A stretch of 10,277 nucleotides of DNA from a virus (IMGVR_UViG_2671180454_000011); one strand, 5' to 3'. Counted from the stretch's first letter, positions 1-10,277 are shown. Numbers and translations are program-made. Notes: generated by a model from the letters alone, not told the origin.

Positions 1-2
1 TT

Positions 3-320
3 CATCGTGCAGTTAAATACCTTCCACCAGCAGGCCATAACGGGCTTACTATTCGTTCACCGTTTCCTAGTGCAGTCGTTGTTTTTAAAAAAGAACCACG
101 TAAGCACGAAATTACACAGACGGTTTGCTGTGGTGACACGCTATTACCGTTAACCATCATTAACAGAGGAGGCTTGAGAGGAAGACCCACCATTTACCCA
201 CCTGAGACGCTCGACAGCTTCATAAAACTATACAGGCAAGGAAAACCCATTAAGTGCATTGCAGATGCTCTCAGAATGCCTCTGAGCACGTCATACAGGA
301 TTGCTCAAAGGTTGAGCTAA
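3..320 (+). CDS. 3' part of a gene entering from upstream of the window; product ends in a resolvase/invertase-type HTH DNA-binding motif
   Basis: Manual translation of + frame 3 gives 105 sense codons from the window edge to TAA 318-320 in AT-rich DNA (…TVCCGDTLLPLTIINRGGLRGRPTIYPPETLDSFIKLYRQGKPIKCIADALRMPLSTSYRIAQRLS*). Absent from the ORF track because it has no in-window start codon. The GRP-(linker)-…G.P…IA..L….STSYRI pattern matches the C-terminal DNA-binding domain of serine recombinases (Hin/Gin/Tn3 resolvase) from memory; residues before GRP do not obviously match a resolvase catalytic domain. Confidence 0.5.
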   Translation, partial: HRAVKYLPPAGHNGLTIRSPFPSAVVVFKKEPRKHEITQTVCCGDTLLPLTIINRGGLRGRPTIYPPETLDSFIKLYRQGKPIKCIADALRMPLSTSYRIAQRLS

Positions 321-411
321 AATTCTCATAAATATGGTCATTTACAAGATAGGTGATTCAGATATTAAGAAGTATCCCTGTGAACAATAAATGACCAATC
401 AGTAATTATTC

Positions 412-442
412 TGTGAAATAATTGTTGCAATTTATAATCACA
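412..442. promoter_or_regulatory. 31-bp imperfect palindrome TGTGAAATAATTGTTGCAATTTATAATCACA (perfect core AATTG-TTG-CAATT); candidate operator or recombination site; contains a perfect TATAAT hexamer at 433-438
   Basis: Read directly: TGTGA … TCACA outer arms and a perfect 13-bp central palindrome, inside the 380-bp non-coding gap between the HTH gene and the rep-like gene. Confidence 0.3.
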
Positions 443-519
443 TCTGTTATAGTTTTTATATGGGGTGATAAAAGAACTCAGAACATTAAGAGGTTACAAC
501 GTTGGGAGGCGTCAGGGTA

Positions 520-547
520 TTGACAGATTTTCACGGCCTCTTATTCA
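520..547 (+). promoter_or_regulatory. Putative sigma70-type promoter TTGACA-N16-TATTCA oriented toward the rep-like gene
   Basis: Perfect -35 hexamer TTGACA at 520-525, -10-like TATTCA at 542-547; about 150 bp upstream of ATG 703. The -10 is imperfect. Confidence 0.25.
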
Positions 548-702
548 ATCAAGGCTTTTCCTTTTGCTGTTAATACTCGCGTAATCGCTCAGGCTTCTGA
601 GTTCCTTTATCAGTCCATCTTCTAATTAATTCACTCCCTCTGGGGTTGGTCACTATACGTGGTCAGCCCTTTCTTTGTTTTATTTTTAAAAAGGAAAATA
701 TA

Positions 703-1656
703 ATGGAAAAATTCCACATGTTTGATGACCGTATTTATCAGATGACTAATGGCGTTAAAGCTGCCGACCGTATTATTTACACTGTCATGTTGAATGAACA
801 AAAGTTTTATCACGATAAGGGGCAATATTATACCCCTTCATATGCTCATCTTGGTCAGTATGCTGGAATCACAAGAACATCCGTGATTGCATGTATGAAA
901 CAACTTGAGGCACATGGTTTAATCAAGAAAACTAACGTTGCAAGCAATCAGTGTGTTATTAAAGTTTATTCACTTGATGAAGTACCGGAGGTTTTAACAG
1001 AGCTTACAGCTAAGGAAGCCAGAAAGGCAAAGCTGGAGTCTAAAGTTACTCAGTCAGTCAAGAAAGATGACCCACTGAGTCAAAATTCTTTACCCACTGA
1101 GTCAAAATTTTTTACTCAGTCAGTCAAAATCTTTGACACGTATAATAACAGTAATAACAAGAAAGAACTTATTAATAACAATAAAGAAGATGACTTTGAA
1201 GAAGAATATTTTAAGAAGGGAGCTTCGCTCTGTGATTCACATGAATGTGATTCTCTTGGTATTGAAGAGGCTATTAAAGAGACTGTTAAAACATCTGACT
1301 TAGATGACCTTGATAGTGAAGCTGCTAAAGAGGTCGTTAAAAAGGAAGATAAAATCTCTGATGTGATTGCTAGTAGTGACCATAAAAACACACAGTGCCC
1401 CGCCACTGATGATGAATTACCGGATGTTGACCTTGATGATGAAGAAGACCCTGAAAAGGAATTGAAACGTGAACAGCGTAAAGCAGAAATTAAAGAAAGA
1501 TTCAGAAATGCGAAGCTAAAGAACAAGGTTAGTGACCTCGATGACTTTGATGATAGTGACGATGATTTTACTTTTACACCAAAAAAGAAAACTCACACCG
1601 AGCCAAAGAAAGAAAAAGTTAAAGTCAGACGTGTTTATGGTGGAGGAATGTTTTAA
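703..1656 (+). CDS. Replication-initiator-like protein: N-terminal winged-helix/HTH-like domain (…YAHLGQYAGITRTSVIACMKQLEAHGLIKK…) followed by ~200 aa of acidic low-complexity sequence; iterons lie inside the gene
   Basis: ORF-track ORF 646..1656 (TTG start); ATG at 703 preferred because AAAGGAAAA lies 6-14 nt upstream. The N-terminal ~100 aa resemble wHTH DNA-binding domains of phage/plasmid initiators (lambda O-like or replisome-organizer-like) from memory; the rest is D/E/K-rich (DLDDLDSE, PDVDLDDEED, SDLDDFDDSDDDF). Functional call is inference from domain look and the internal iterons. Confidence 0.75.
   Translation: MEKFHMFDDRIYQMTNGVKAADRIIYTVMLNEQKFYHDKGQYYTPSYAHLGQYAGITRTSVIACMKQLEAHGLIKKTNVASNQCVIKVYSLDEVPEVLTELTAKEARKAKLESKVTQSVKKDDPLSQNSLPTESKFFTQSVKIFDTYNNSNNKKELINNNKEDDFEEEYFKKGASLCDSHECDSLGIEEAIKETVKTSDLDDLDSEAAKEVVKKEDKISDVIASSDHKNTQCPATDDELPDVDLDDEEDPEKELKREQRKAEIKERFRNAKLKNKVSDLDDFDDSDDDFTFTPKKKTHTEPKKEKVKVRRVYGGGMF
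1046..1133. repeat. Four tandem 22-bp iterons (A-B-B-A): TTACTCAGTCAGTCAAGAAAGA / TGACCCACTGAGTCAAAATTCT / TTACCCACTGAGTCAAAATTTT / TTACTCAGTCAGTCAAAATCTT
   Basis: Hexamer AGTCAA occurs at 1056, 1078, 1100, 1122 (exact 22-bp spacing, counted by hand). Units 1 and 4 are near-identical, as are units 2 and 3. Located within the rep-like ORF. Confidence 0.75.
1134..1200. other. AT-rich tract directly 3' of the iterons with three copies of TAATAACA (1143, 1152, 1173); candidate DNA-unwinding element of an intragenic origin
   Basis: Read directly; position relative to the iterons mirrors the ori-lambda layout (iterons followed by AT-rich region inside gene O). Confidence 0.4.
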
Positions 1657-1952
1657 TGAAAACTTATAATGGCGAGAGAAAATACCGTGACTATTTACTC
1701 AGACGTTACAGCATTTCTCGTGAAGGTTACTTGATGAAAGATACTCACGGGGAAGTTTACCGGATTCGACCGAAGAAAGAAGGGAGGGATTATTATTTCG
1801 TCGATGATGTGACAGATTTAAAGATTGACGCTTTGAAGTTTGCGGTGCTGTATCATTACGATTTATGGGATTCAGTCCACCAGCTACGATTAAAAGACGG
1901 TGACCCCGGTAATCTGAGGGCCACCAATATTATCAAGGGAAAGTGCCGGTAA
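1656..1952 (+). CDS. Hypothetical 98-aa protein, translationally coupled to the rep-like gene (TAATG overlap); faint resemblance to AP2/NUMOD4-HNH-like small phage proteins
   Basis: ORF track; ATG 1656 overlaps the rep TAA stop; GGTGGAGGA SD about 10 nt upstream. The motifs YSISREGYL and KDGDPGNLRATN loosely recall NUMOD4 and HNH segments, but the catalytic His placement does not fit, so this is not a confident call. Confidence 0.65.
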   Translation: MKTYNGERKYRDYLLRRYSISREGYLMKDTHGEVYRIRPKKEGRDYYFVDDVTDLKIDALKFAVLYHYDLWDSVHQLRLKDGDPGNLRATNIIKGKCR

Positions 1953-1961
1953 GGCCACCAG

Positions 1962-2138
1962 CTATTTATTTACTGAAATCTCTATCTCAACACGAAGAAG
2001 TTTAAGTCGAATTGTAAGCTTTGTCTTTTTTGTAATGACTCGATTCATAACGCAAAACACCAATAGCACAATAAATACCGCAAAGCCCAACGAGCTAAAA
2101 CGATGAGATTCAATAATTGCTGTGAAAAAATCATGCAT
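1962..2138 (-). CDS. Small single-pass membrane protein (58 aa: MHDFFTAIIESHRFSSLGFAVFIVLLVFCVMNRVITKKTKLTIRLKLLRVEIEISVNK)
   Basis: Minus-strand ORF 1962..2168 in the track (GTG start); the first ATG (plus 2136-2138) has AAGGA 7 nt upstream and a TTGTCA-N17-TACTAT promoter further upstream. One hydrophobic helix followed by a basic stretch. Lies convergent to the rep operon, with only 9 bp between the two stop codons. Confidence 0.45.
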   Translation of the reverse strand: MHDFFTAIIESHRFSSLGFAVFIVLLVFCVMNRVITKKTKLTIRLKLLRVEIEISVNK

Positions 2139-2188
2139 TAATTTTCCTTTTGTGAAAGGAAACAGCACCTGTATCAGCCCCTACAACC

Positions 2189-2217
2189 ATAGTATCATGT
2201 AAATGAGGTACTGACAA
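2189..2217 (-). promoter_or_regulatory. Putative promoter for the minus-strand small membrane-protein gene (TTGTCA-N17-TACTAT on the minus strand)
   Basis: Reverse complement of plus 2212-2217 (TGACAA) gives the -35 TTGTCA; reverse complement of plus 2189-2194 (ATAGTA) gives the -10 TACTAT; spacer is 17 nt. Confidence 0.3.
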
Positions 2218-2239
2218 TATGTTAAATAGATGTTAAGAT
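2211..2239 (+). promoter_or_regulatory. Putative promoter for the small-gene operon starting at 2276 (CTGACA-N17-TAAGAT); its -35 overlaps the -35 of the divergent minus-strand promoter
   Basis: Read directly: -35 at 2211-2216, -10 at 2234-2239, 17-nt spacer; ATG 2276 is ~30 nt downstream of the predicted start site. Confidence 0.3.
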
Positions 2240-2275
2240 TGTAGTATGAGTAAGAGATTTAAGGAGATTTTTACA

Positions 2276-2566
2276 ATGACTCACACAGTTACGCGCCTTT
2301 TGCCAGAGGCATTTGAACGACTGGCAGCAATCAAAGCCAAATATCCCGATATGAAGCACACAGCGCTTGTTGGGGAGATTTTAAAAGAGTCGGTAAACCT
2401 TAGCCCTTTCGATAACGTTAAGGGCGTCGCAGAGGGTTCTAAGGCCATCAGAATCACAACGGGCCAACTGGAACTACTCAAAGCACAGTCCGCAGTAGCA
2501 GGTTGCTCAATGATTCAGGTGTTAAGCGCTAAGGTCCATCAACTGGCGGATAGATTGGAGGTTTAA
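2276..2566 (+). CDS. Small DNA-binding protein with two consecutive ribbon-helix-helix-like segments (96 aa)
   Basis: ORF track 2246..2566; ATG 2276 preferred (AAGGAG SD 9 nt upstream). Segment 1 TVTRLLPEAFERLAAIKAKYPDMKHTALVGEILKESV and segment 2 IRITTGQLELLKAQSAVAGCSMIQVLSAKVHQLADRL each fit the RHH pattern of a beta-strand, helix, G-x-S/T-type turn and helix (Arc/CopG/MetJ-like), judged from memory. Confidence 0.7.
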   Translation: MTHTVTRLLPEAFERLAAIKAKYPDMKHTALVGEILKESVNLSPFDNVKGVAEGSKAIRITTGQLELLKAQSAVAGCSMIQVLSAKVHQLADRLEV

Positions 2567-2787
2567 TGTGTTATAGGTTCCAATATTCCACACTTGGCCG
2601 CCACCTAATCAGACAGAATTTAGCAGATGCTGAATTTGAAGATGTGACCCTCAAAGCAAACAAACGATTAAAACCCTCTCAAATCCACCAGCTTAAACAC
2701 GAATTAAAGCCACTGGTAATACTCGACTATAACGACCCTGAACAGCTTGAGCAGGGAATTAAGCTTATTTCTGAATGGGGTGCTTGA
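2566..2787 (+). CDS. Hypothetical 73-aa protein, translationally coupled (TAATG) to the RHH-like gene
   Basis: ORF track; ATG 2566 overlaps the upstream TAA stop; GGAGG SD at 2556-2560. Confidence 0.65.
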   Translation: MCYRFQYSTLGRHLIRQNLADAEFEDVTLKANKRLKPSQIHQLKHELKPLVILDYNDPEQLEQGIKLISEWGA

Positions 2788-3002
2788 TGAAAACTATCAC
2801 AGTACAACTTCAGACTAATAAAGCATTTCGTTATTTTGAAAACTTGCTTGAGTTATACGAAGGATGGGGAAGTATCCACGGCAAAGATGATATCTATCTT
2901 CACTTGTCAGCCCCTAACTATTCTCTGAAGACTCCGGTTAAGCAAAGCTGGTTAAAAGACTACGGTCACCAGATGGGGCTATTAGTCTCAGACTTGAGCT
3001 AA
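2787..3002 (+). CDS. Hypothetical 71-aa protein, start overlapping the upstream stop (TGATG); alternative start at ATG 2775
   Basis: ORF track 2775..3002; ATG 2787 overlaps the upstream TGA by 1 nt and has a G-rich SD-like stretch upstream; ATG 2775 lacks one. Confidence 0.6.
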   Translation: MKTITVQLQTNKAFRYFENLLELYEGWGSIHGKDDIYLHLSAPNYSLKTPVKQSWLKDYGHQMGLLVSDLS

Positions 3003-3044
3003 AAACAGCAAAACATATCTCTCAGGCTTTACCAGACGCACCAG

Positions 3045-3119
3045 AAACGTTTTTAAGCCCCTAATCAGGGTAACTTAGGGAATCGCCTTAAGTGGTCTAA
3101 AAAAGGGGTTAAAACGTCT
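3045..3119. promoter_or_regulatory. Nested inverted repeats in the 146-bp intergenic gap: AAACGTTTTTAAGCCCC (3045-3061) vs GGGGTTAAAACGT (3105-3117), enclosing hairpin CCCTAA-N10-TTAGGG (3058-3080)
   Basis: Read directly; AAACGTTT (3045-3052) is itself a perfect 8-bp palindrome. No classical GC stem plus U-run terminator is evident. Confidence 0.3.
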
Positions 3120-3148
3120 TAGAATGCGATACAGGAAGGATTTTAAAA

Positions 3149-3454
3149 ATGAATTACCCAATGCAAATTATGGTTGACCAAGAAACCATGAATTGGTTGA
3201 TTGACCTGAACAGGTCGGGCTTTAATATCTATTTCATGCATTGTTTTGAAGCGTCAACGTATATTGACAAGCATATAATCAACGAAATTAAACTTGGTGA
3301 CTATGTTCACAAGCTGGAAGTAACAGACCCATACAATAAGCGCTTTATCATTGAAGAGTGCAATCGACTTGATTTAAGCCCTGAGCAATTATTGAAGCTG
3401 AATGTATTCTTGACCTATCAGAATGAATTAAACCCTTACAGCGAGGTGATGTAA
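3149..3454 (+). CDS. Hypothetical 101-aa protein
   Basis: ORF track; ATG 3149 preceded by AGGAAGG. Confidence 0.7.
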   Translation: MNYPMQIMVDQETMNWLIDLNRSGFNIYFMHCFEASTYIDKHIINEIKLGDYVHKLEVTDPYNKRFIIEECNRLDLSPEQLLKLNVFLTYQNELNPYSEVM

Positions 3455-3531
3455 TGACACTCGTTATTCTCTGGATGACTTTAGGGTTATTTGTTGGTTG
3501 CTGGGTAGGTAATACGGTAAATAAGAATTGA
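3454..3531 (+). CDS. 25-aa hydrophobic micro-ORF (MTLVILWMTLGLFVGCWVGNTVNKN), translationally coupled (TAATG) to the 101-aa gene
   Basis: Not in the ORF track (too short). ATG 3454-3456 overlaps the upstream TAA stop; GAGGTG SD 5-10 nt upstream; product is one predicted TM helix. Manual translation to TGA 3529-3531. Confidence 0.4.
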   Translation: MTLVILWMTLGLFVGCWVGNTVNKN

Positions 3532-3650
3532 TGTTACCAATCTGTTAAAAAGCTGTTGACAAATAACCTTAAGCATGAGATGATGGTAATAGGGAAGAGC
3601 AACTCTTCCTGAATTAAACTATTAATCATTCTACATCAATGATAGTTATT

Positions 3651-3704
3651 CTGAAAGGTGCAATGCTTTTCGCTACATGACCTTTCAGGTTAGTCTGAGA
3701 GGTC
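3651..3704 (+). promoter_or_regulatory. Mutually exclusive stem-loops: CTGAAAGGT (3651-3659) or CTGAGAGGTC (3695-3704) can each pair with GACCTTTCAG (3679-3688); candidate RNA switch/attenuator-like element
   Basis: Read directly: a 9-bp perfect stem with 20-nt loop versus a 10-bp stem (1 mismatch) with 6-nt loop, sharing the central arm. Lies in a 398-bp non-coding region downstream of a TTGACA hexamer (3556-3561) and of hairpin GGAAGAG-caa-CTCTTCC (3593-3609). Confidence 0.35.
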
Positions 3705-3733
3705 ATCTCGAAAAGTACTCTTGTTCATTCGTT

Positions 3734-3755
3734 TGAATCCTTTTTGAATCCTTTA
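3734..3755. repeat. Tandem direct repeat TGAATCCTTTT / TGAATCCTTTA
   Basis: Read directly: two adjacent 11-bp units, 10 of 11 identical. Confidence 0.5.
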
Positions 3756-3784
3756 GATGTTTTAATTTCTTCACCTTATGAATG

Positions 3785-3810
3785 GCCCTTTATAAGAAAT
3801 TATCTAGGGC
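3785..3810. promoter_or_regulatory. Imperfect palindrome GCCCT-TTATAAGAAATTATCT-AGGGC about 120 bp upstream of the 236-aa gene; candidate operator
   Basis: Read directly: 5-bp perfect outer arms with partial inner symmetry (TATAA/TTAT). Confidence 0.25.
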
Positions 3811-3929
3811 TATTCAGCTTTTAAAAAGCATACTTGGCAAACCGCCTTTTAAGTCTCTTCTAAGTTTAGATAGGCTGTCAGGTGTGCTTTTTAAAAACTG
3901 AAACACTTCCGCTTAGAAGAGGAAAAGCA

Positions 3930-4640
3930 ATGACAAATGATATTTACATTAATGGCAAAGTGATTGATAGCTTCAGTGACTGGTCGCCACAGACTGAACA
4001 TCCAGCTATCACTATTCAGCGTAAAGAGCATGACAAGCGTATTGAGCTTGAGCAATCGCTAAAGATGTCACCAAAAACAACCATCTTTGTGTCTCCTGAG
4101 CCTCAAGAGATGCCTGATATTTGCAAGAGTGAAGCATTACTTGAGCTTGAAAAGAAATATTACCAACTGCTGAAAGAACAGCGCCTTAGATTAGATGACG
4201 CTTACAGCAAAGTTACCTTGATGCAATCAGCTATTGAGCCGTCAGAATTTGAGATTCAGGATGAATTGTCACAGAAACCATTTGTCTATTACCAATACGA
4301 AGATAATGATGGTTTTGGTACTTTTCAAGAAAACGTCGCAGCCGTGATTAGTAGTCTTCCTGCTGGACATCGAATTGTGAAGATGGTTAAGGCATCAAGA
4401 GGTGCTGGTCAGTTTATTTACATGACTAATAAGAGCGATGAAGAACTCGCTGAAATTGCTAGACAGAACATCTTGGCATCACGTAACAAGCAACTTGATA
4501 ATGTTAAGTTGTATCTCTCAAGAGAGCTTCAGGCTATGAAAGAGCTTGTGAAAGAATATGAAGATGCTAAGAAGATTGCTATGCAGGCTGATATTGAGCA
4601 GCTTACGAAGATTTCTAGCAAATATGCAAAGGCTATTTAA
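3930..4640 (+). CDS. Hypothetical 236-aa protein with a helical, charged (coiled-coil-like) C-terminal third
   Basis: ORF track 3882..4640 (GTG start); ATG 3930 preferred (AGAAGAGGA SD 7 nt upstream). No family recognised. Confidence 0.75.
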   Translation: MTNDIYINGKVIDSFSDWSPQTEHPAITIQRKEHDKRIELEQSLKMSPKTTIFVSPEPQEMPDICKSEALLELEKKYYQLLKEQRLRLDDAYSKVTLMQSAIEPSEFEIQDELSQKPFVYYQYEDNDGFGTFQENVAAVISSLPAGHRIVKMVKASRGAGQFIYMTNKSDEELAEIARQNILASRNKQLDNVKLYLSRELQAMKELVKEYEDAKKIAMQADIEQLTKISSKYAKAI

Positions 4641-4664
4641 TTAATAATTAAAAGGTGGTGGTGA

Positions 4665-4871
4665 ATGATTGATTTAACAGAACGCTATGAGCTTATTAAA
4701 GCAATTAGTGAACGATTGAAAGAACAACCCAACAAACCAAAACGAATCAAATCATTCACCTCCTCTAAGCAAAAGAATAGAATCAGGAAAATAGCTAAGT
4801 GGTGTCTTGATAAATTACCAAGTGATTGTCAGATTGTTGGTGAAGATGGTAATTATTATCTGGTTAGGTAA
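4665..4871 (+). CDS. Hypothetical 68-aa basic protein
   Basis: ORF track; AGGTGG SD 8 nt upstream of ATG 4665. Confidence 0.6.
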   Translation: MIDLTERYELIKAISERLKEQPNKPKRIKSFTSSKQKNRIRKIAKWCLDKLPSDCQIVGEDGNYYLVR

Positions 4872-4969
4872 CAAGATTGGTTGGGTGAAAATCTACGGGA
4901 GAGATTATCGAGTGATATCGGTAGTCTTTCCCTTTTTCGTATATGAACACTTAAAGAGGTGAAACATGA

Positions 4970-7150
4970 ATGAGCAAATTCACAGTTGATAGTTTTATCG
5001 TTGAACTTAGTTTCAGTGAAAACGTTATTAAGGGCTTGCAAAGAGTTGAAAAGGCAGCTTTGCAGTCAGCACAAAGAATTGAACGCAATTTGAATAGAGC
5101 GTTTAAGGTCGATACCAAGCAACTTGACAGCAATCTGACAAGTTCTTTAGGGCAGCTTGAAAGGAAGTTTAATAAGACCTTTGACAAGATTGAGCAGAGA
5201 GCAAGAAGCACAAAAGCATTTCAGTTTGCCACCAGATTTAATGACACTGTTAATCCTCCAAAACAATCAAGGCAACCACGAATTAGCGGAAACAGAGCAA
5301 TCACAGCAGCGCATAGCGTGAATATGTCTAAGCTTGGTGATATTAATCCGCTGATGGCTAAAATGTTTAAAGCACAGTATTACAGCTTAAGCGGTAAGGC
5401 TGGTAATATTGGAAGTGAAAAGTTTAACGCTGAACTTGCAAAATTAAATCAATCTCTTCGTGAAACGTTGAATAAACTCAGGTCACAGACAAAGACCGCC
5501 AGCATTAACAATACAAGCGACGCATTTAATAATCTTGCAAGCAATGCGATTAAATTATCTGGTGCATTTTACTCTGTGATGGGTGCTCTTAACGCTTACA
5601 AGGCCATTATGAATGCAGGTCTTAAACGAGATTCCGCACAGAGAGCCGCTAAGTTTGTACTTGGTGATAAAGCATCTGAAGCTGAGGTATTTATTCGAAA
5701 TTTAGCAGACAAGACAGGTCTTAATATCTCTGAAGGGCTATCAAGCTACGCTAAGTTTGCAGCAGGTGCTCAGGGTTCTATGTCACAGGAACAGACACAG
5801 GAGCTATTTGGTAATGCAACGGCTATGAGTCGCTTAATGGGGCTTTCTAACGATGAGCTAAACGGCATTTTGAGAGCATTTGAGCAGATGGCGAGCAAGG
5901 GCAAGATTCAGGCTGAGGAATTACGTGGGCAGTTAGGTGACCGTATGGCTGGTGCATTTAAGCTATTCGCTGAAGCATTGGGTATGACTGCTACAGAGCT
6001 TGATGCAGCCATGAAAAACGGGAAGGTACTTTCCGCTGATACTCTCCCTAAAGTCGCTAAACAGATGGGCTTGATGATTGATAAAGCGGGTGGCTGGGCT
6101 GAAGTCACTAAGAGCACTCAGACAGCTTTAGGTAAGTTAGCAAACAATTGGGATGATACGATGGTGAAAATCTTCTCAGGTTCACAGGATGAGCTAAACG
6201 GCTTCTTATCCAGCCTGAGTAACCTGCTTAGTGAAATGGGGATGAGTTCTTCTATCGCTGGTGATGCTATCGGTGGACTTATCGACATGCTTAAAGCTGG
6301 TGTAGATGATATTCGCGTATTCAATAACACCATTGAAGGCTGGATTTTACAGACTAAGAAGTTCTATTACAGCCTTGATGACACTAAACGAAAACTACTT
6401 GATGAAGTCGGTGATGGTTTTATCAACTTCGTCAAAGGTCTTGCTATAGCGTTATCTGCAAAGACGCTATTCAGTGCTACTACAGGGGTTATGAACCTGA
6501 CAAGAGCAATCACAACGTTAGGTACAAGAGCTAATCAGGTGGCTGGTCAGGTAGCTACTGGTAAAGGTGGTGGAAAACTGAAAGGTGTAGCTGGTGGTGT
6601 AGGTAGTGCTCTTGCAATTGGTTATGCTGATGACGGTTATGAAACAGCGTTAGCATTAGCTTCAATGATTCCACAAATCAGAGGCGTCACTCTTGGTTTA
6701 TATGCATTGAAGAAAGCACTGGATTTTATGAATCAGGAAGTAGTCAAAAACGCTAATATGCATCCGTCTGGGGTAGGTGTGGGTAGTGACTTTAATCCCG
6801 TGTATTCTGGTGACCCTAATAAACCGAATATGATTAACGAAGGATGGAGTAGAATTTTTAGTTCAATGGGTGAATTGTTTAACAATGCCACAATGAATAT
6901 TGCAAGATTCAATCATCCAGAGTTAAACAACATTAAGCAAGATTCAGCATTAACGAGTGCAGATATTCAGGGTCTGAGGGATGAAATTAGTGCTTTGAGT
7001 AAGCGTATTCAGGAGCCAGTGAAAGTTTCACTTGGTGGTCAAGTTGTCGTTCGACCAGATGAACCATCTTTCTTTACTTTCAATCAATCAGCTAATGACC
7101 AGTTCACGCAGGATATGCTCTTAAGTTCAAGCTATCCAGAGGAAGAATGA
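4970..7150 (+). CDS. Tail tape-measure-domain protein (726 aa)
   Basis: ORF track; AAGAGGTGA SD upstream of ATG 4970. Contains the conserved tape-measure core …FVLGDKASEAEVFIRNLADKTGL…ASKGKIQAEELRGQLGDRMAGAFKLFAEALGMTATELDAAMKNGKVLSADTLPKVAKQMG… recognised from memory, a coiled-coil-rich N-terminus and a Gly-rich hydrophobic middle (GKGGGKLKGVAGGVGSALAIGYADDGYE). Role as a true tail ruler is uncertain because no other tail or head genes are in the window. Confidence 0.8.
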   Translation: MSKFTVDSFIVELSFSENVIKGLQRVEKAALQSAQRIERNLNRAFKVDTKQLDSNLTSSLGQLERKFNKTFDKIEQRARSTKAFQFATRFNDTVNPPKQSRQPRISGNRAITAAHSVNMSKLGDINPLMAKMFKAQYYSLSGKAGNIGSEKFNAELAKLNQSLRETLNKLRSQTKTASINNTSDAFNNLASNAIKLSGAFYSVMGALNAYKAIMNAGLKRDSAQRAAKFVLGDKASEAEVFIRNLADKTGLNISEGLSSYAKFAAGAQGSMSQEQTQELFGNATAMSRLMGLSNDELNGILRAFEQMASKGKIQAEELRGQLGDRMAGAFKLFAEALGMTATELDAAMKNGKVLSADTLPKVAKQMGLMIDKAGGWAEVTKSTQTALGKLANNWDDTMVKIFSGSQDELNGFLSSLSNLLSEMGMSSSIAGDAIGGLIDMLKAGVDDIRVFNNTIEGWILQTKKFYYSLDDTKRKLLDEVGDGFINFVKGLAIALSAKTLFSATTGVMNLTRAITTLGTRANQVAGQVATGKGGGKLKGVAGGVGSALAIGYADDGYETALALASMIPQIRGVTLGLYALKKALDFMNQEVVKNANMHPSGVGVGSDFNPVYSGDPNKPNMINEGWSRIFSSMGELFNNATMNIARFNHPELNNIKQDSALTSADIQGLRDEISALSKRIQEPVKVSLGGQVVVRPDEPSFFTFNQSANDQFTQDMLLSSSYPEEE

Positions 7151-7157
7151 TTTAACG

Positions 7158-7998
<841 letters not shown>

Positions 7999-8020
7999 TG
8001 TGCAAAATGGCATCTGAATC

Positions 8021-8125
8021 GATCGCAGTTTGGCATTCGAATCGATCATGATTTGGCATCCATCTCCGATCACAGTTTGGCATCACAATCGATCACGATT
8101 TGGCATACTTCCGATCATTGATTGG
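8021..8125. repeat. Five direct repeats of GATC-N4-TTTGGCAT (last copy degenerate) with 22-24 bp spacing at the IS left end; candidate multiple transposase-binding sites
   Basis: GATC at 8021, 8044, 8068, 8091, 8113; TTTGGCAT at 8029, 8052, 8076, 8099; a sixth partial copy AAATGGCAT at 8005. Counted by hand. Multiple subterminal repeats are a known hallmark of IS21-family ends. Confidence 0.7.
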
Positions 8126-8201
8126 AATTCGCCAGTCACTCCGGGAATTAACTCTTTTCACCACAGTCTCCATTGCCGTGTTTAAACCAGTGGAGACGTC
8201 A

Positions 8202-9767
8202 ATGTCCAAAAAGAGAAAATCCAGGAGCACTATGGAAACTTGTTTTAAGATCCTTCAGCTCAAGTTCGATAAGAAGCTGACTAACCGTTGTATCGGACTG
8301 ACGTTACACATCAGCGCCTCAACCGTTTTTGAGGTTCTTGCCCGCTTCAAAGCCTCTTCTCTGTCATGGCCATTACCTGCGGATATATCCCATGACACGC
8401 TGGAGAAACTCATTTTCCCGCCCAAAGACACCTCTGCGTCAGAGCTTGTTATGCCTGACATGCTGTACTTCGATACGGAAATGAGAAAACCTGGCGTGAC
8501 GCGCCAACTGTTGTGGATGGAATACAAGGCACAGGCGGGTGACAAAGCGATGGGATACTCACACTTCTGCCGTTGCTACCGGAAGTGGAAAAAAACGCGA
8601 CGCCTCTCCATGCGACAGGAGCATCGTGCTGGCGAAAAGCTCTTTATCGACTTCTGTGGTCCTACGGTCCCTGTTATTAATCCGGACACCGGAGAGATAC
8701 GCCGCGTGGCAATCTTCGTGGCTGTAATGGGGGCGTCCAACTATACCTATGTTGAAGCGTGCGAAGGTCAGGACATGATGTCATGGTTAAATGCCCACAG
8801 CCGTTGCCTGACCTTCCTGGGCGGCGTACCGAAGCTGCTCATCCCCGATAACCTCAGAAGCGCAGTGAAAAAAGCCGATCGCTATGAGCCTGTCATCAAC
8901 GACAGTTATCAGGCGCTGGCTGAGCACTATGGCACGGTTATTATCCCGGCCCGCCCGCGCAAACCTAAAGATAAACCAAAAGCAGAAAACGGCGTCCTCA
9001 TCGTCGAGCGATGGCTTCTTGCCCGCATCCGTAATGAAACCTTCCACACGCTCAGGGCGCTGAATGCACGCCTTCGGGAGTTGCTGACGGACATGAATAA
9101 CCGACCAATGAAGGGATACGGTAATCAAACCCGCGCAGAACGCTTCCGCATGCTGGATGCACCAGCACTCTCTCCGCTGCCTCTGGAGCCTTATGAATAC
9201 ACGGAATACAAAGCCGTGAAGGTTGGCCCTGACTACCACGTTGAATATGCCCGTCACTGGTACTCCGTTCCACACGAACTGGTCGGTCAGCGTCTGTCAC
9301 TGAAGGTGGGGCAGTCGGTGGTACAGCTCTGGCACAAGGGGCAGTGTGTGGCGCAACATCCGCGCAGCACACATGAATATAAACACACAACCAATCCGCT
9401 TCACATGCCAGAACGCCACCGGCGGCATGGGACATGGACACCGGAACGCCTTATCGAGCAGGGAAACCGTACAGGTCCGTCCACAGGCCGGGTGGTTGAA
9501 TCCATGCTGAAAGCCAAACCCCATCCGGAGCTGGCTTACCGTGCAGTCCTGGGTCTGCTGGCACTTCAGAAAAAATACGGCCCGGAACGGCTGGAAAAGG
9601 CCTGTTACGTTGCCCTGCACTATAACGCCCCGGACAGACGCTTTATCGACAATCTGCTGCGTCATCATCGGGATAACGTTGAGCTTCCGTTATCCCGCCA
9701 GGGCGAACAACATCCGGCATATGCTTCAGAGCATGAAAACCTGCGTGGTCCTGGCTACTACCACTGA
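8202..9767 (+). CDS. istA: IS21-family transposase IstA (N-terminal HTH, DDE catalytic core)
   Basis: ORF track 8100..9767 (TTG start); ATG 8202 preferred (GGAGA SD 5 nt upstream). N-terminal HTH-like …LTNRCIGLTLHISASTVFEVL…, then a DDE-type core ending in the …PRKPKDKPKAENGV… block typical of IS21-family IstA, from memory. Confidence 0.85.
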   Translation: MSKKRKSRSTMETCFKILQLKFDKKLTNRCIGLTLHISASTVFEVLARFKASSLSWPLPADISHDTLEKLIFPPKDTSASELVMPDMLYFDTEMRKPGVTRQLLWMEYKAQAGDKAMGYSHFCRCYRKWKKTRRLSMRQEHRAGEKLFIDFCGPTVPVINPDTGEIRRVAIFVAVMGASNYTYVEACEGQDMMSWLNAHSRCLTFLGGVPKLLIPDNLRSAVKKADRYEPVINDSYQALAEHYGTVIIPARPRKPKDKPKAENGVLIVERWLLARIRNETFHTLRALNARLRELLTDMNNRPMKGYGNQTRAERFRMLDAPALSPLPLEPYEYTEYKAVKVGPDYHVEYARHWYSVPHELVGQRLSLKVGQSVVQLWHKGQCVAQHPRSTHEYKHTTNPLHMPERHRRHGTWTPERLIEQGNRTGPSTGRVVESMLKAKPHPELAYRAVLGLLALQKKYGPERLEKACYVALHYNAPDRRFIDNLLRHHRDNVELPLSRQGEQHPAYASEHENLRGPGYYH

Positions 9768-9783
9768 CAGAAGGAACAACCGT

Positions 9784-10277
9784 ATGAGTGATAATCTGTT
9801 AAACAAACTGACCCAACTGAAACTCCCGGCGATGGCCGGGAGCCTGATACGGCAACGGGAAACGCCTCAGACTTACGACGAACTGTCGTTCGAGGAAAGG
9901 CTGACACTGCTGGTTGATGACGAGCTTCTGAGCAGAGAAAACAGTCGTGTGGCACGGTTGAGAAAAAATGCCTGCCTGAAATATCAGGCAACACCGGAAG
10001 GGCTGCGTTATCCGGCCTCAAGAGGTCTGCGGGCTGAACAGATGAGGGAACTGCTGAACGGCCACTACATAATCCACAGGAAAAACCTACTGATAACCGG
10101 TCCGACAGGATGCGGTAAGAGCTGGATAGCCAATGCGCTGGGCGAACAGGCATGTCGACAGAAATACAGCGTCCGGTACTGTAGAACCGGGCGATTACTG
10201 GAACAGTTGGCTCAGGGACGTGTTGATGGCAGTTGGCTGAAATATCTGAAACAGTTGCAAAAAATACAGGTTCTAAT
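9784..10277 (+). CDS. istB: IS21-family helper ATPase IstB, 5' part (continues beyond window)
   Basis: Manual translation from ATG 9784 (AAGGA SD 9 nt upstream): MSDNLLNKLTQLKLPAMAGS…NLLITGPTGCGKSWIANALGEQA… with a Walker A motif (GPTGCGKS); open to the window end. Not in the ORF track because no stop is reached. Confidence 0.85.
   Translation, partial: MSDNLLNKLTQLKLPAMAGSLIRQRETPQTYDELSFEERLTLLVDDELLSRENSRVARLRKNACLKYQATPEGLRYPASRGLRAEQMRELLNGHYIIHRKNLLITGPTGCGKSWIANALGEQACRQKYSVRYCRTGRLLEQLAQGRVDGSWLKYLKQLQKIQVL

Follow-up and report, generated by a model that had tools for sequence, protein, structure and literature searches.

The window (the whole stretch of DNA analysed here, 10,277 nucleotides from IMGVR_UViG_2671180454_000011) consists of an 8 kb flank with phage-like genes and, to the right of it, an insertion sequence that continues beyond the last base (Table 1). 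The insertion sequence is a known, catalogued element, ISSso4 of the IS21 family, which was first named in Shigella sonnei. Positions 8001-10277 are identical to the copy on Shigella sonnei pINV (0 mismatches in 2277 bp; L001 1509-4146), and RefSeq/PGAP names the istA of identical copies 'IS21-like element ISSso4 family transposase' and their istB 'helper ATPase IstB'. A megablast search with 7990-10277 returned hundreds of copies on plasmids and in E. coli chromosomes, and of 5,426 complete E. coli genomes about 1,700 gave a match to ISSso4-like elements, as did more than 400 plasmids.

The left tip of the element lies at 8001 (TGCAAAATGGCAT / TGCAAAATGG). We place the start there because an uninterrupted target in E. 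coli TUM1881 reads ...agtactcagtg/aatcctaac and two other copies have unrelated flanks that run up to the same TG. Full copies (L001, L002) have the right terminus ...GGAATACGCA, such that the element reads TG...CA, and target duplications of 5-7 bp flank four copies (AATAA in L002, CTCAGGC in L001, GCCAGA in L005 and AGGCT in L102). With istA and istB, these termini, subterminal repeats at both ends and short target duplications, together with the RefSeq names and the IstA and IstB domains, the assignment to an IS21-family left end made in an earlier note on this DNA holds. The sequence ACTCAG stands directly left of the element in two independent insertions, those of the window (7993-8000) and of pINV (L001 1501-1508), and several E. 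coli matches run 4-6 bp past the terminus; the common flank may reflect a weak target preference or coincidence.

The IstA protein has a Mu-transposase-C domain (PF22483, 7e-20, above the curated cutoff) and an rve match (1.4e-7) that, at 32.2 bits, falls just below the cutoff of 32.6. The top Foldseek matches of its AF2 model (mean pLDDT 79) are the IS5376 IstA structures 8q4d and 8b4h (E = 1e-15), and the model has an N-terminal three-helix helix-turn-helix (HTH) fold with helices at residues 2-13, 18-25 and 29-41. By sequence, IS5376 IstA aligns over residues 73-373 of ISSso4 IstA only (phmmer from 73, profile from 107). The alignment begins past the HTH, and the N-terminal HTH is therefore matched by fold and by the covariation described below only. 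A residue-level mapping of HTH-1 to R31/K32 of IS5376 failed, with the alignments starting at residue 73 or 107.

Two in-frame ATGs, 10 codons apart, could begin istA, the upstream one adding MSKKRKSRST. The GGAG ahead of the upstream ATG sits in the 3' arm of a hairpin, and an outer stem, CTCTTTT/AAAAGAG (8152-8158 with 8211-8217), encloses this start; distant relatives have two starts and a stem at the same place, with different stem sequences. The double start resembles that of IS21, in which the transposase and cointegrase are the products of two in-frame starts. A consensus scan of 7900-8300 found no σ70-like promoter and no GATC-bearing promoter in the left end; by eye there are weak candidates only, on which we do not rely. 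Scanning the window for Rfam families and tRNA genes gave no matches.

Table 1. Features of the window, with coordinates counted from its first base.
Feature	Position	Strand	Description
Replication-initiator-like protein	646-1656
Tape-measure protein	4970-7150
Region of the baseplate-like gene	7233-8051		Broken twice
ISSso4 (IS21 family)	8001-10277	+	First 2277 of 2638 bp; runs off the window end
Unit L1	8001-8024	+	TGCAAAATGGCATCTGAATCGATC; terminal 5'-TG; CS1-like ATGGCAT at 8007-8013; CS2-like TCGATC, GATC at 8021-8024; repeat copy GATCGCAGTTTGGCAT from 8021
Unit L2	8025-8047	+	GCAGTTTGGCATTCGAATCGATC; GCAG-TTTGGCAT-TCGAA-TCGATC; GATC and repeat copy GATCATGATTTGGCAT from 8044
Unit L3	8048-8071	+	ATGATTTGGCATCCATCTCCGATC; ATGA-TTTGGCAT-CCATCTCC-GATC; GATC and repeat copy GATCACAGTTTGGCAT from 8068
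Unit L4	8072-8094	+	ACAGTTTGGCATCACAATCGATC; ACAG-TTTGGCAT-CACAA-TCGATC; GATC and repeat copy GATCACGATTTGGCAT from 8091
Unit L5	8095-8116	+	ACGATTTGGCATACTTCCGATC; ACGA-TTTGGCAT-ACTTCC-GATC; GATC and repeat copy GATCATTGATTGGAAT from 8113
Unit L6, degenerate	8117-8139	+	ATTGATTGGAATTCGCCAGTCAC; ATTG-ATTGGAAT-TCGCCAGTCAC; without GATC
Hairpin	8166-8197	+	GTCTCCATTG...CAGTGGAGAC; inverted repeat I3; RNA fold -23.2 kcal/mol, z = -2.4
istA, transposase	8232-9767	+	511 aa as annotated; alternative in-frame start at 8202 adds 10 residues
istB, helper AAA+ ATPase, 5' part	9784-10277	+	PF01695 IstB_IS21, E = 1.9e-31; runs off the window

The 8 kb left of the element has no GATC, against 28 expected from base composition, and 5 CTAG, also against 28. 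The nearest phage relatives of its tape-measure and baseplate genes are Felix O1-like; Felixounaviruses are without GATC (PMC5477317), and phage garuso has none in 28.8 kb. A virulent Felix O1-like phage was considered as the source of the flank and dropped: the flank is an E. coli chromosomal island of about 10 kb. The same GATC-free block of about 10 kb is found in E. coli chromosomes; the comparison covered 1-8000 of the window, L100 12400-22100 and L099. A probe from 6000-8000 has at least 80% of its 2 kb covered in 75 E. coli genomes, with a best identity of about 94%. In TUM1881 the block splits a DUF72 gene in two and adjoins a serine recombinase. ISSso4 is inserted 21 bp ahead of the stop codon of the baseplate-like gene, which also has a 73 bp deletion near 7454 relative to TUM1881, and the open reading frame at 7740-8051 is a fusion that runs into the end of the element. 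The island looks to be decaying.

Immediately inside the left tip, 8021-8128 holds five copies of GATC-N4-(A/T)TTGG(C/A)AT, 22-24 bp apart (start-to-start spacings of 23, 24, 23 and 22). Repeat finding returned five 19-nt copies, starting at 8018, 8041, 8065, 8088 and 8110, and TRF reported a period-23 array in the window. The pattern GATCNNNNWTTGGMAT, with at most one mismatch, has five matches in the whole window, all in the left-end array; 200 dinucleotide shuffles gave 0.28 ± 0.53 matches and none gave five. All seven GATC sites of the window are inside the element, five of them in this array, and the depletion of GATC in the body of the element is not significant (5 observed versus 9.1 expected, P = 0.11).

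Every full unit has a tip-proximal (A/T)TTGGCAT box (TTTGGCAT) and, about one helical turn away, a tip-distal (T/C)CGATC(A) box. The CS1-like ATGGCAT of L1 is an extra terminal half-copy, and the terminus of L1 is the same in three copies with differing flanks. For the right end, which the window does not reach, we used L001, L002 and other copies: three inverted units are present there, TGCGTATTCCGCTCTATTCGATC / ACGGATTGGCATCGAAGTTCGATC / AGCGATTCGCATCCATTCGATC, all with GATC. With five of five units on the left and three of three on the right, GATC is present in 8/8 full units of the whole element. The sixth position on the left varies: relatives L006, L007 and L010 read ...GTCGATCAC or ...GCCGATCAC there, which makes a sixth GATC, and the site missing from L6 of the window is present in relatives from Edwardsiella, Enterobacter and Yersinia. 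At base 8126, the window and the S. sonnei pINV copy have ATTGGAAT, and most others (L002-L005) have ATTGGCAT.

These results uphold much of what the earlier note had described and amend some of its details. The GATC-bearing direct repeats every 22-24 bp are real, at five copies against 0.28 by chance; the statement that each copy carries GATC extends to all eight full units, with the degenerate L6 as the one unit lacking it; and the right end, which the note had proposed to inspect, has the site in each of its three units. The bounds of 7999-8125 have to be moved, as the element starts at 8001 and the array, with the terminal half-copy and the degenerate sixth unit, occupies 8001-8139. The description of the repeats as helically phased has to be given up in its same-face sense: at 10.5 bp per turn the GATCs lie at 0, 69, 171, 240 and 274 degrees, a spiral that rules out a common face. 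A spacing of about 23 bp, as is usual in the family, means that successive sites spiral round the helix.

A period of about 23 bp with a GATC in each repeat superficially resembles iterons and the GATC clusters of oriC-type origins, and the repeats could in principle be iterons, an origin or an operator array belonging to the flanking phage-like island or to a plasmid rather than to the insertion sequence. The array, however, begins exactly where similarity to the uninterrupted island stops, accompanies istAB at hundreds of unrelated sites on plasmids and chromosomes, and has an inverted counterpart at the other end of the element, whereas the island itself is without any GATC. The boundary, the co-movement with istAB and the mirrored right end rule this reading out, and we give it almost no weight.

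The layout matches that of the predicted binding sites of the transposase. IS21-family ends are composed of direct repeats, each with two conserved boxes, CS1 and CS2, about 10 bp apart (PMC10122671), and the multiple subterminal repeats that the earlier note expected of such ends fit this IstA-site layout. In the cryo-EM structure of IS5376 IstA, HTH-1 is on CS2 and HTH-2 on CS1, both through the major groove; integration in vitro needs two complete repeats, and the repeat spacing of 23 bp fits a supercoiled, plectonemic wrapping of both ends (PMC10122671). We therefore read 8001-8139 as the left terminal repeat region of ISSso4, a predicted array of IstA sites in which GATC is the core of the recognition word, and put the probability of this reading at roughly 85%. 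We take the units to be IstA binding sites on the strength of family homology and of the covariation between IstA and the boxes described below.

We compared the left ends of ten plasmid-borne relatives from Escherichia, Salmonella, Enterobacter, Edwardsiella, Yersinia and Serratia (77-98% DNA identity), together with that of L094 (73% IstA identity). CGATC is kept in every full unit of the intact relatives, whereas the 4-nt and 5-8-nt spacers vary freely. The search for close relatives without GATC, which the earlier note had named as a check, turned up none among intact Enterobacterales elements down to 73% IstA identity. The aligned left ends of L009 and L011 look degraded and have lost most of their GATCs; the incomplete gene tables of these plasmids list no istA. 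Because degraded copies lose their GATCs and intact ones keep all of them, the boxes appear to be maintained through selection on the function of the element.

The number of units is much less constant than their sequence. Left ends have two full units plus L6 in L102, three in L005 and L101, five in ISSso4 and six in L006 and L007, and the range of 2-6 units occurs although the left ends concerned are more than 85% identical; some of these copies are flanked by target site duplications (TSDs). Copies with only two or three full units have istAB intact and target duplications present; a Citrobacter relative at 56% IstA identity (L096) has nine left units. The unit number probably changes when the 23 bp units recombine unequally. 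Since it is labile in intact, TSD-flanked elements, the inner units would be accessory. ISSso4 has more units on the left (5-6) than on the right (3), and every element of the ISSso4 group with both ends read shows this left/right asymmetry.

We scanned 185,579 species genomes with a profile-guided search, which yielded 80 loci with IstA at 44-54% identity; six intermediate homologues (55-73% IstA identity) were added singly. Nearly all are built alike: in more than 60 loci (IstA 44-73%) the terminus TGCRTATTYCGG leads into direct repeats, of which there are typically 4-5 and at most about 9, at a period of about 22-23 bp. What varies by lineage is the distal box. It is CCGGACA in Idiomarina, Marinomonas, Alteromonas and Stutzerimonas, and CCGGCCA in Alishewanella, Neptunomonas, Pseudomonas and Thiocapsa; CGTGACC, GTGAAC/GTGAGC, CTGCCAC and TCCGAAC also occur. 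CCGATCA or TTGATCA is found in Vibrio (L017/L018), an Oceanospirillaceae metagenome-assembled genome (MAG; L020) and Brumicola (L062), in Colwellia, Cognaticolwellia and Algibacillus (L084/L078/L089), in Sodalis ISSoEn3 and Citrobacter (L097/L096), and in the three MAGs L031/L041/L064. For the GATC, GGCC and GGAC boxes, which all follow CCG-NN-CA, the central dinucleotide is the sole difference, and a neighbour-joining tree of IstA spreads the GATC-type elements over at least seven separate clades, which have non-GATC sisters. Many distant relatives have, after the direct repeats, one to three inverted unit copies (for example, CCGAAATCGGTGATCGG); in L017, L018, L020, L031, L041, L062, L078, L084 and L089 they lie some 90-150 bp from the left tip. 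With the last direct unit these copies form palindromic arrangements; ISSso4 has no such inverted copies.

The variety of boxes allowed a search for the residues of IstA that vary with them. We sorted 58 IstA sequences into box classes and put all alignment columns in order of their mutual information with the class. Residue 29 (counted from the ATG at 8232; codon 8316-8318) was the top column in both the binary and the multi-class comparison, and its value was reached by the maximum of 0 of 1000 label shuffles, which ignore phylogeny. Elements with a GATC box have alanine (4), proline (8), tyrosine (3) or cysteine (2) at this position. Those with GG(C/A)CA have mostly arginine (11), with histidine (3), lysine (1), serine (2) and proline (1), and those with GACCA have arginine (2) or histidine (1). 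Lysine accompanies GTGACC (4) and arginine CTGCCA (8), and the GTGAAC box goes with valine, isoleucine or threonine. The pattern suggests that a basic residue 29 pairs with a central G, and a small or hydrophobic one with a central A, the adenine that is the target of Dam. Given the AF2 helix at 29-41, residue 29 would be the first residue of the recognition helix of HTH-1, and its covariation with the box supports the view that HTH-1 reads the distal GATC box. Residue 29 is thus a candidate single-residue specificity determinant, and a code of this kind could help to predict the cross-reactivity of co-resident IS21-family elements.

By analogy with IS5376, each unit would bind one IstA monomer, with HTH-2 seated on the proximal box and HTH-1 on the distal one with its GATC, both through the major groove. 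The spacing of about 23 bp would set the sites on a spiral and favour the supercoil-like wrapping seen in the IS5376 structure. The transpososome would most likely be built on the outer two units, with the inner units as accessory sites of variable number. In the ISSso4 lineage HTH-1 would read a word with GATC as its core, and related lineages have CCG-GC-CA or CCG-GA-CA at that position; the difference from GGCC and GGAC lies in the central dinucleotide, and the first base of its AT is the adenine that Dam methylates.

What the inner units do is a separate question. Units L3-L6 might serve mainly as an autoregulatory operator, at which bound IstA would occlude or modulate the transcription of istA, or read-through into it, without a part in catalysis. 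The units are placed between the terminus and istA; ISSso4 has 5-6 of them on the left and 3 on the right, an asymmetry shared by its group; inner units are gained and lost freely while istAB and the TSDs stay intact; and integration of IS5376 in vitro requires only two repeats (PMC10122671). However, the scan of 7900-8300 gave no σ70-like promoter, and extra sites could equally serve cooperative assembly or discrimination between the ends. We consider an operator role rather unlikely, and it would be compatible both with the reading as transpososome sites and with a coupling to Dam.

The second question is why the word should be GATC. E. coli and Shigella, in which identical copies of ISSso4 are present, carry Dam; with GATC also at the right end and in the intact close relatives, none of the refuting conditions named in the earlier note has arisen. 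In a Dam+ host all eight boxes would be N6-methylated on the surface that IstA is predicted to read, and IstA must then at least tolerate methylation. A stronger proposal, which we hold only tentatively, is that the state of methylation gates IstA binding and that GATC is kept for this reason. Fully methylated ends could be poor substrates, or the sole good ones, with the hemimethylated state after passage of the fork acting as the switch, and five GATCs in 96 bp could recruit SeqA and tie transposition to replication in the manner of IS10, IS50 and IS903. This proposal would account for GATC in 8/8 full units at both ends and for its invariance, amid variable spacers, in the full units of intact close relatives. 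It also agrees with the distribution of the box: of the at least seven separate GATC-type IstA clades, five belong to orders that carry Dam, SeqA and MutH, namely Enterobacterales, Vibrionales or Alteromonadales. GATC is distinguished from GGCC and GGAC by a methylatable adenine, and the change at residue 29 from Arg/His/Lys to Ala/Pro/Cys/Tyr is compatible with a contact to the N6-methyl group or with room for it. HTH contacts in the family are in the major groove (PMC10122671).

Several observations weigh on the other side. Lineages that are not known for Dam have GATC-type elements too, as seen in MAGs of Oceanospirillaceae, Spongiibacteraceae and 'Pseudomonadales' (L020, L064, L041, L031), and many relatives from Dam-carrying orders have non-GATC boxes (Idiomarina, Alishewanella, Alteromonas, Vibrio sp. 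nBUS_14, Rahnella and Glaciecola). The G+C content of GATC-type elements is lower (mean 0.52, compared with 0.60 for the GG(C/A)CA type), so that composition confounds the association with hosts. Neither the 23 bp spacing, which does not put the sites on one face, nor the GATC content of the element body, which is not significantly depleted, nor the scan for a GATC-bearing promoter lends the proposal support, and in the literature searched we found no paper linking IS21 or IstA to Dam; a 2025 comparative paper on IS21 structure is silent on the repeats. On balance, GATC is primarily a transposase recognition word, one of several alternatives in this IstA clade, and a coupling of ISSso4 to Dam, though plausible, seems to us less likely than not. 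A role as recognition word only, however, does not by itself explain GATC boxes in at least seven clades, five of them in Dam-carrying orders. We hypothesize, against our own leaning, that ISSso4-type elements and the other IS21-family lineages that took up a CGATC distal box independently may use Dam methylation of the adenine that residue 29 would read, so as to time the assembly of the transpososome to the hemimethylated interval that follows replication; SeqA on the dense GATC cluster might add to such gating.

The finding is largely explained by a catalogued insertion sequence with an end typical of its family. The object is already known, and what is worth keeping is a testable Dam hypothesis and a candidate specificity residue. 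As all eight predicted IstA sites have a methylatable adenine, ISSso4 is a clean system in which to test Dam sensing by an IS21-family transposase.

In sequence, the copy in the window is the same as known ISSso4, and only its place of insertion is particular, in the 3' end of the gene for a baseplate-like protein on a phage-like island free of GATC. ISSso4 shares with IS5376 and IS21 the direct repeats of about 23 bp at both ends, with two boxes per repeat about one turn apart, an IstA with two N-terminal HTH domains, and left repeats at least as numerous as right repeats. It differs in the number of units (5-6 left and 3 right, compared with 2-3 left and 2 right) and in its boxes, which are TTTGGCAT and CGATC in ISSso4 and GC-rich CS1 and CS2 in IS5376; the two IstA proteins are about 20% identical over the aligned structure. 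ISSoEn3 of Sodalis and unnamed IS21 elements of Vibrio, Colwellia and Brumicola have ISSso4-like ends in which each unit has CCGATCA as its distal box, on both sides wherever both could be read, but their IstA is 45-56% identical, their proximal box is ATTCCG or ATTTCGG, and they have 4-9 units.

Insertion sequences known to be regulated by Dam include IS10, IS50 and IS903 (summarised in PMC9296519). Like these, ISSso4 has GATC inside the terminal (here predicted) transposase-binding sequence and a Dam+ enterobacterial host. In IS10, IS50 and IS903, one or two GATCs are located in the -10 of the transposase promoter and at one end, with proven dam effects, whereas in ISSso4 GATC is in all eight predicted binding units and in no evident promoter. 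If the hypothesis were true, ISSso4 would be the first Dam-controlled element of the IS21 family, and the first case of a methylation switch in every transposase-binding repeat at both ends, with a code that relates residue 29 to the central dinucleotide.
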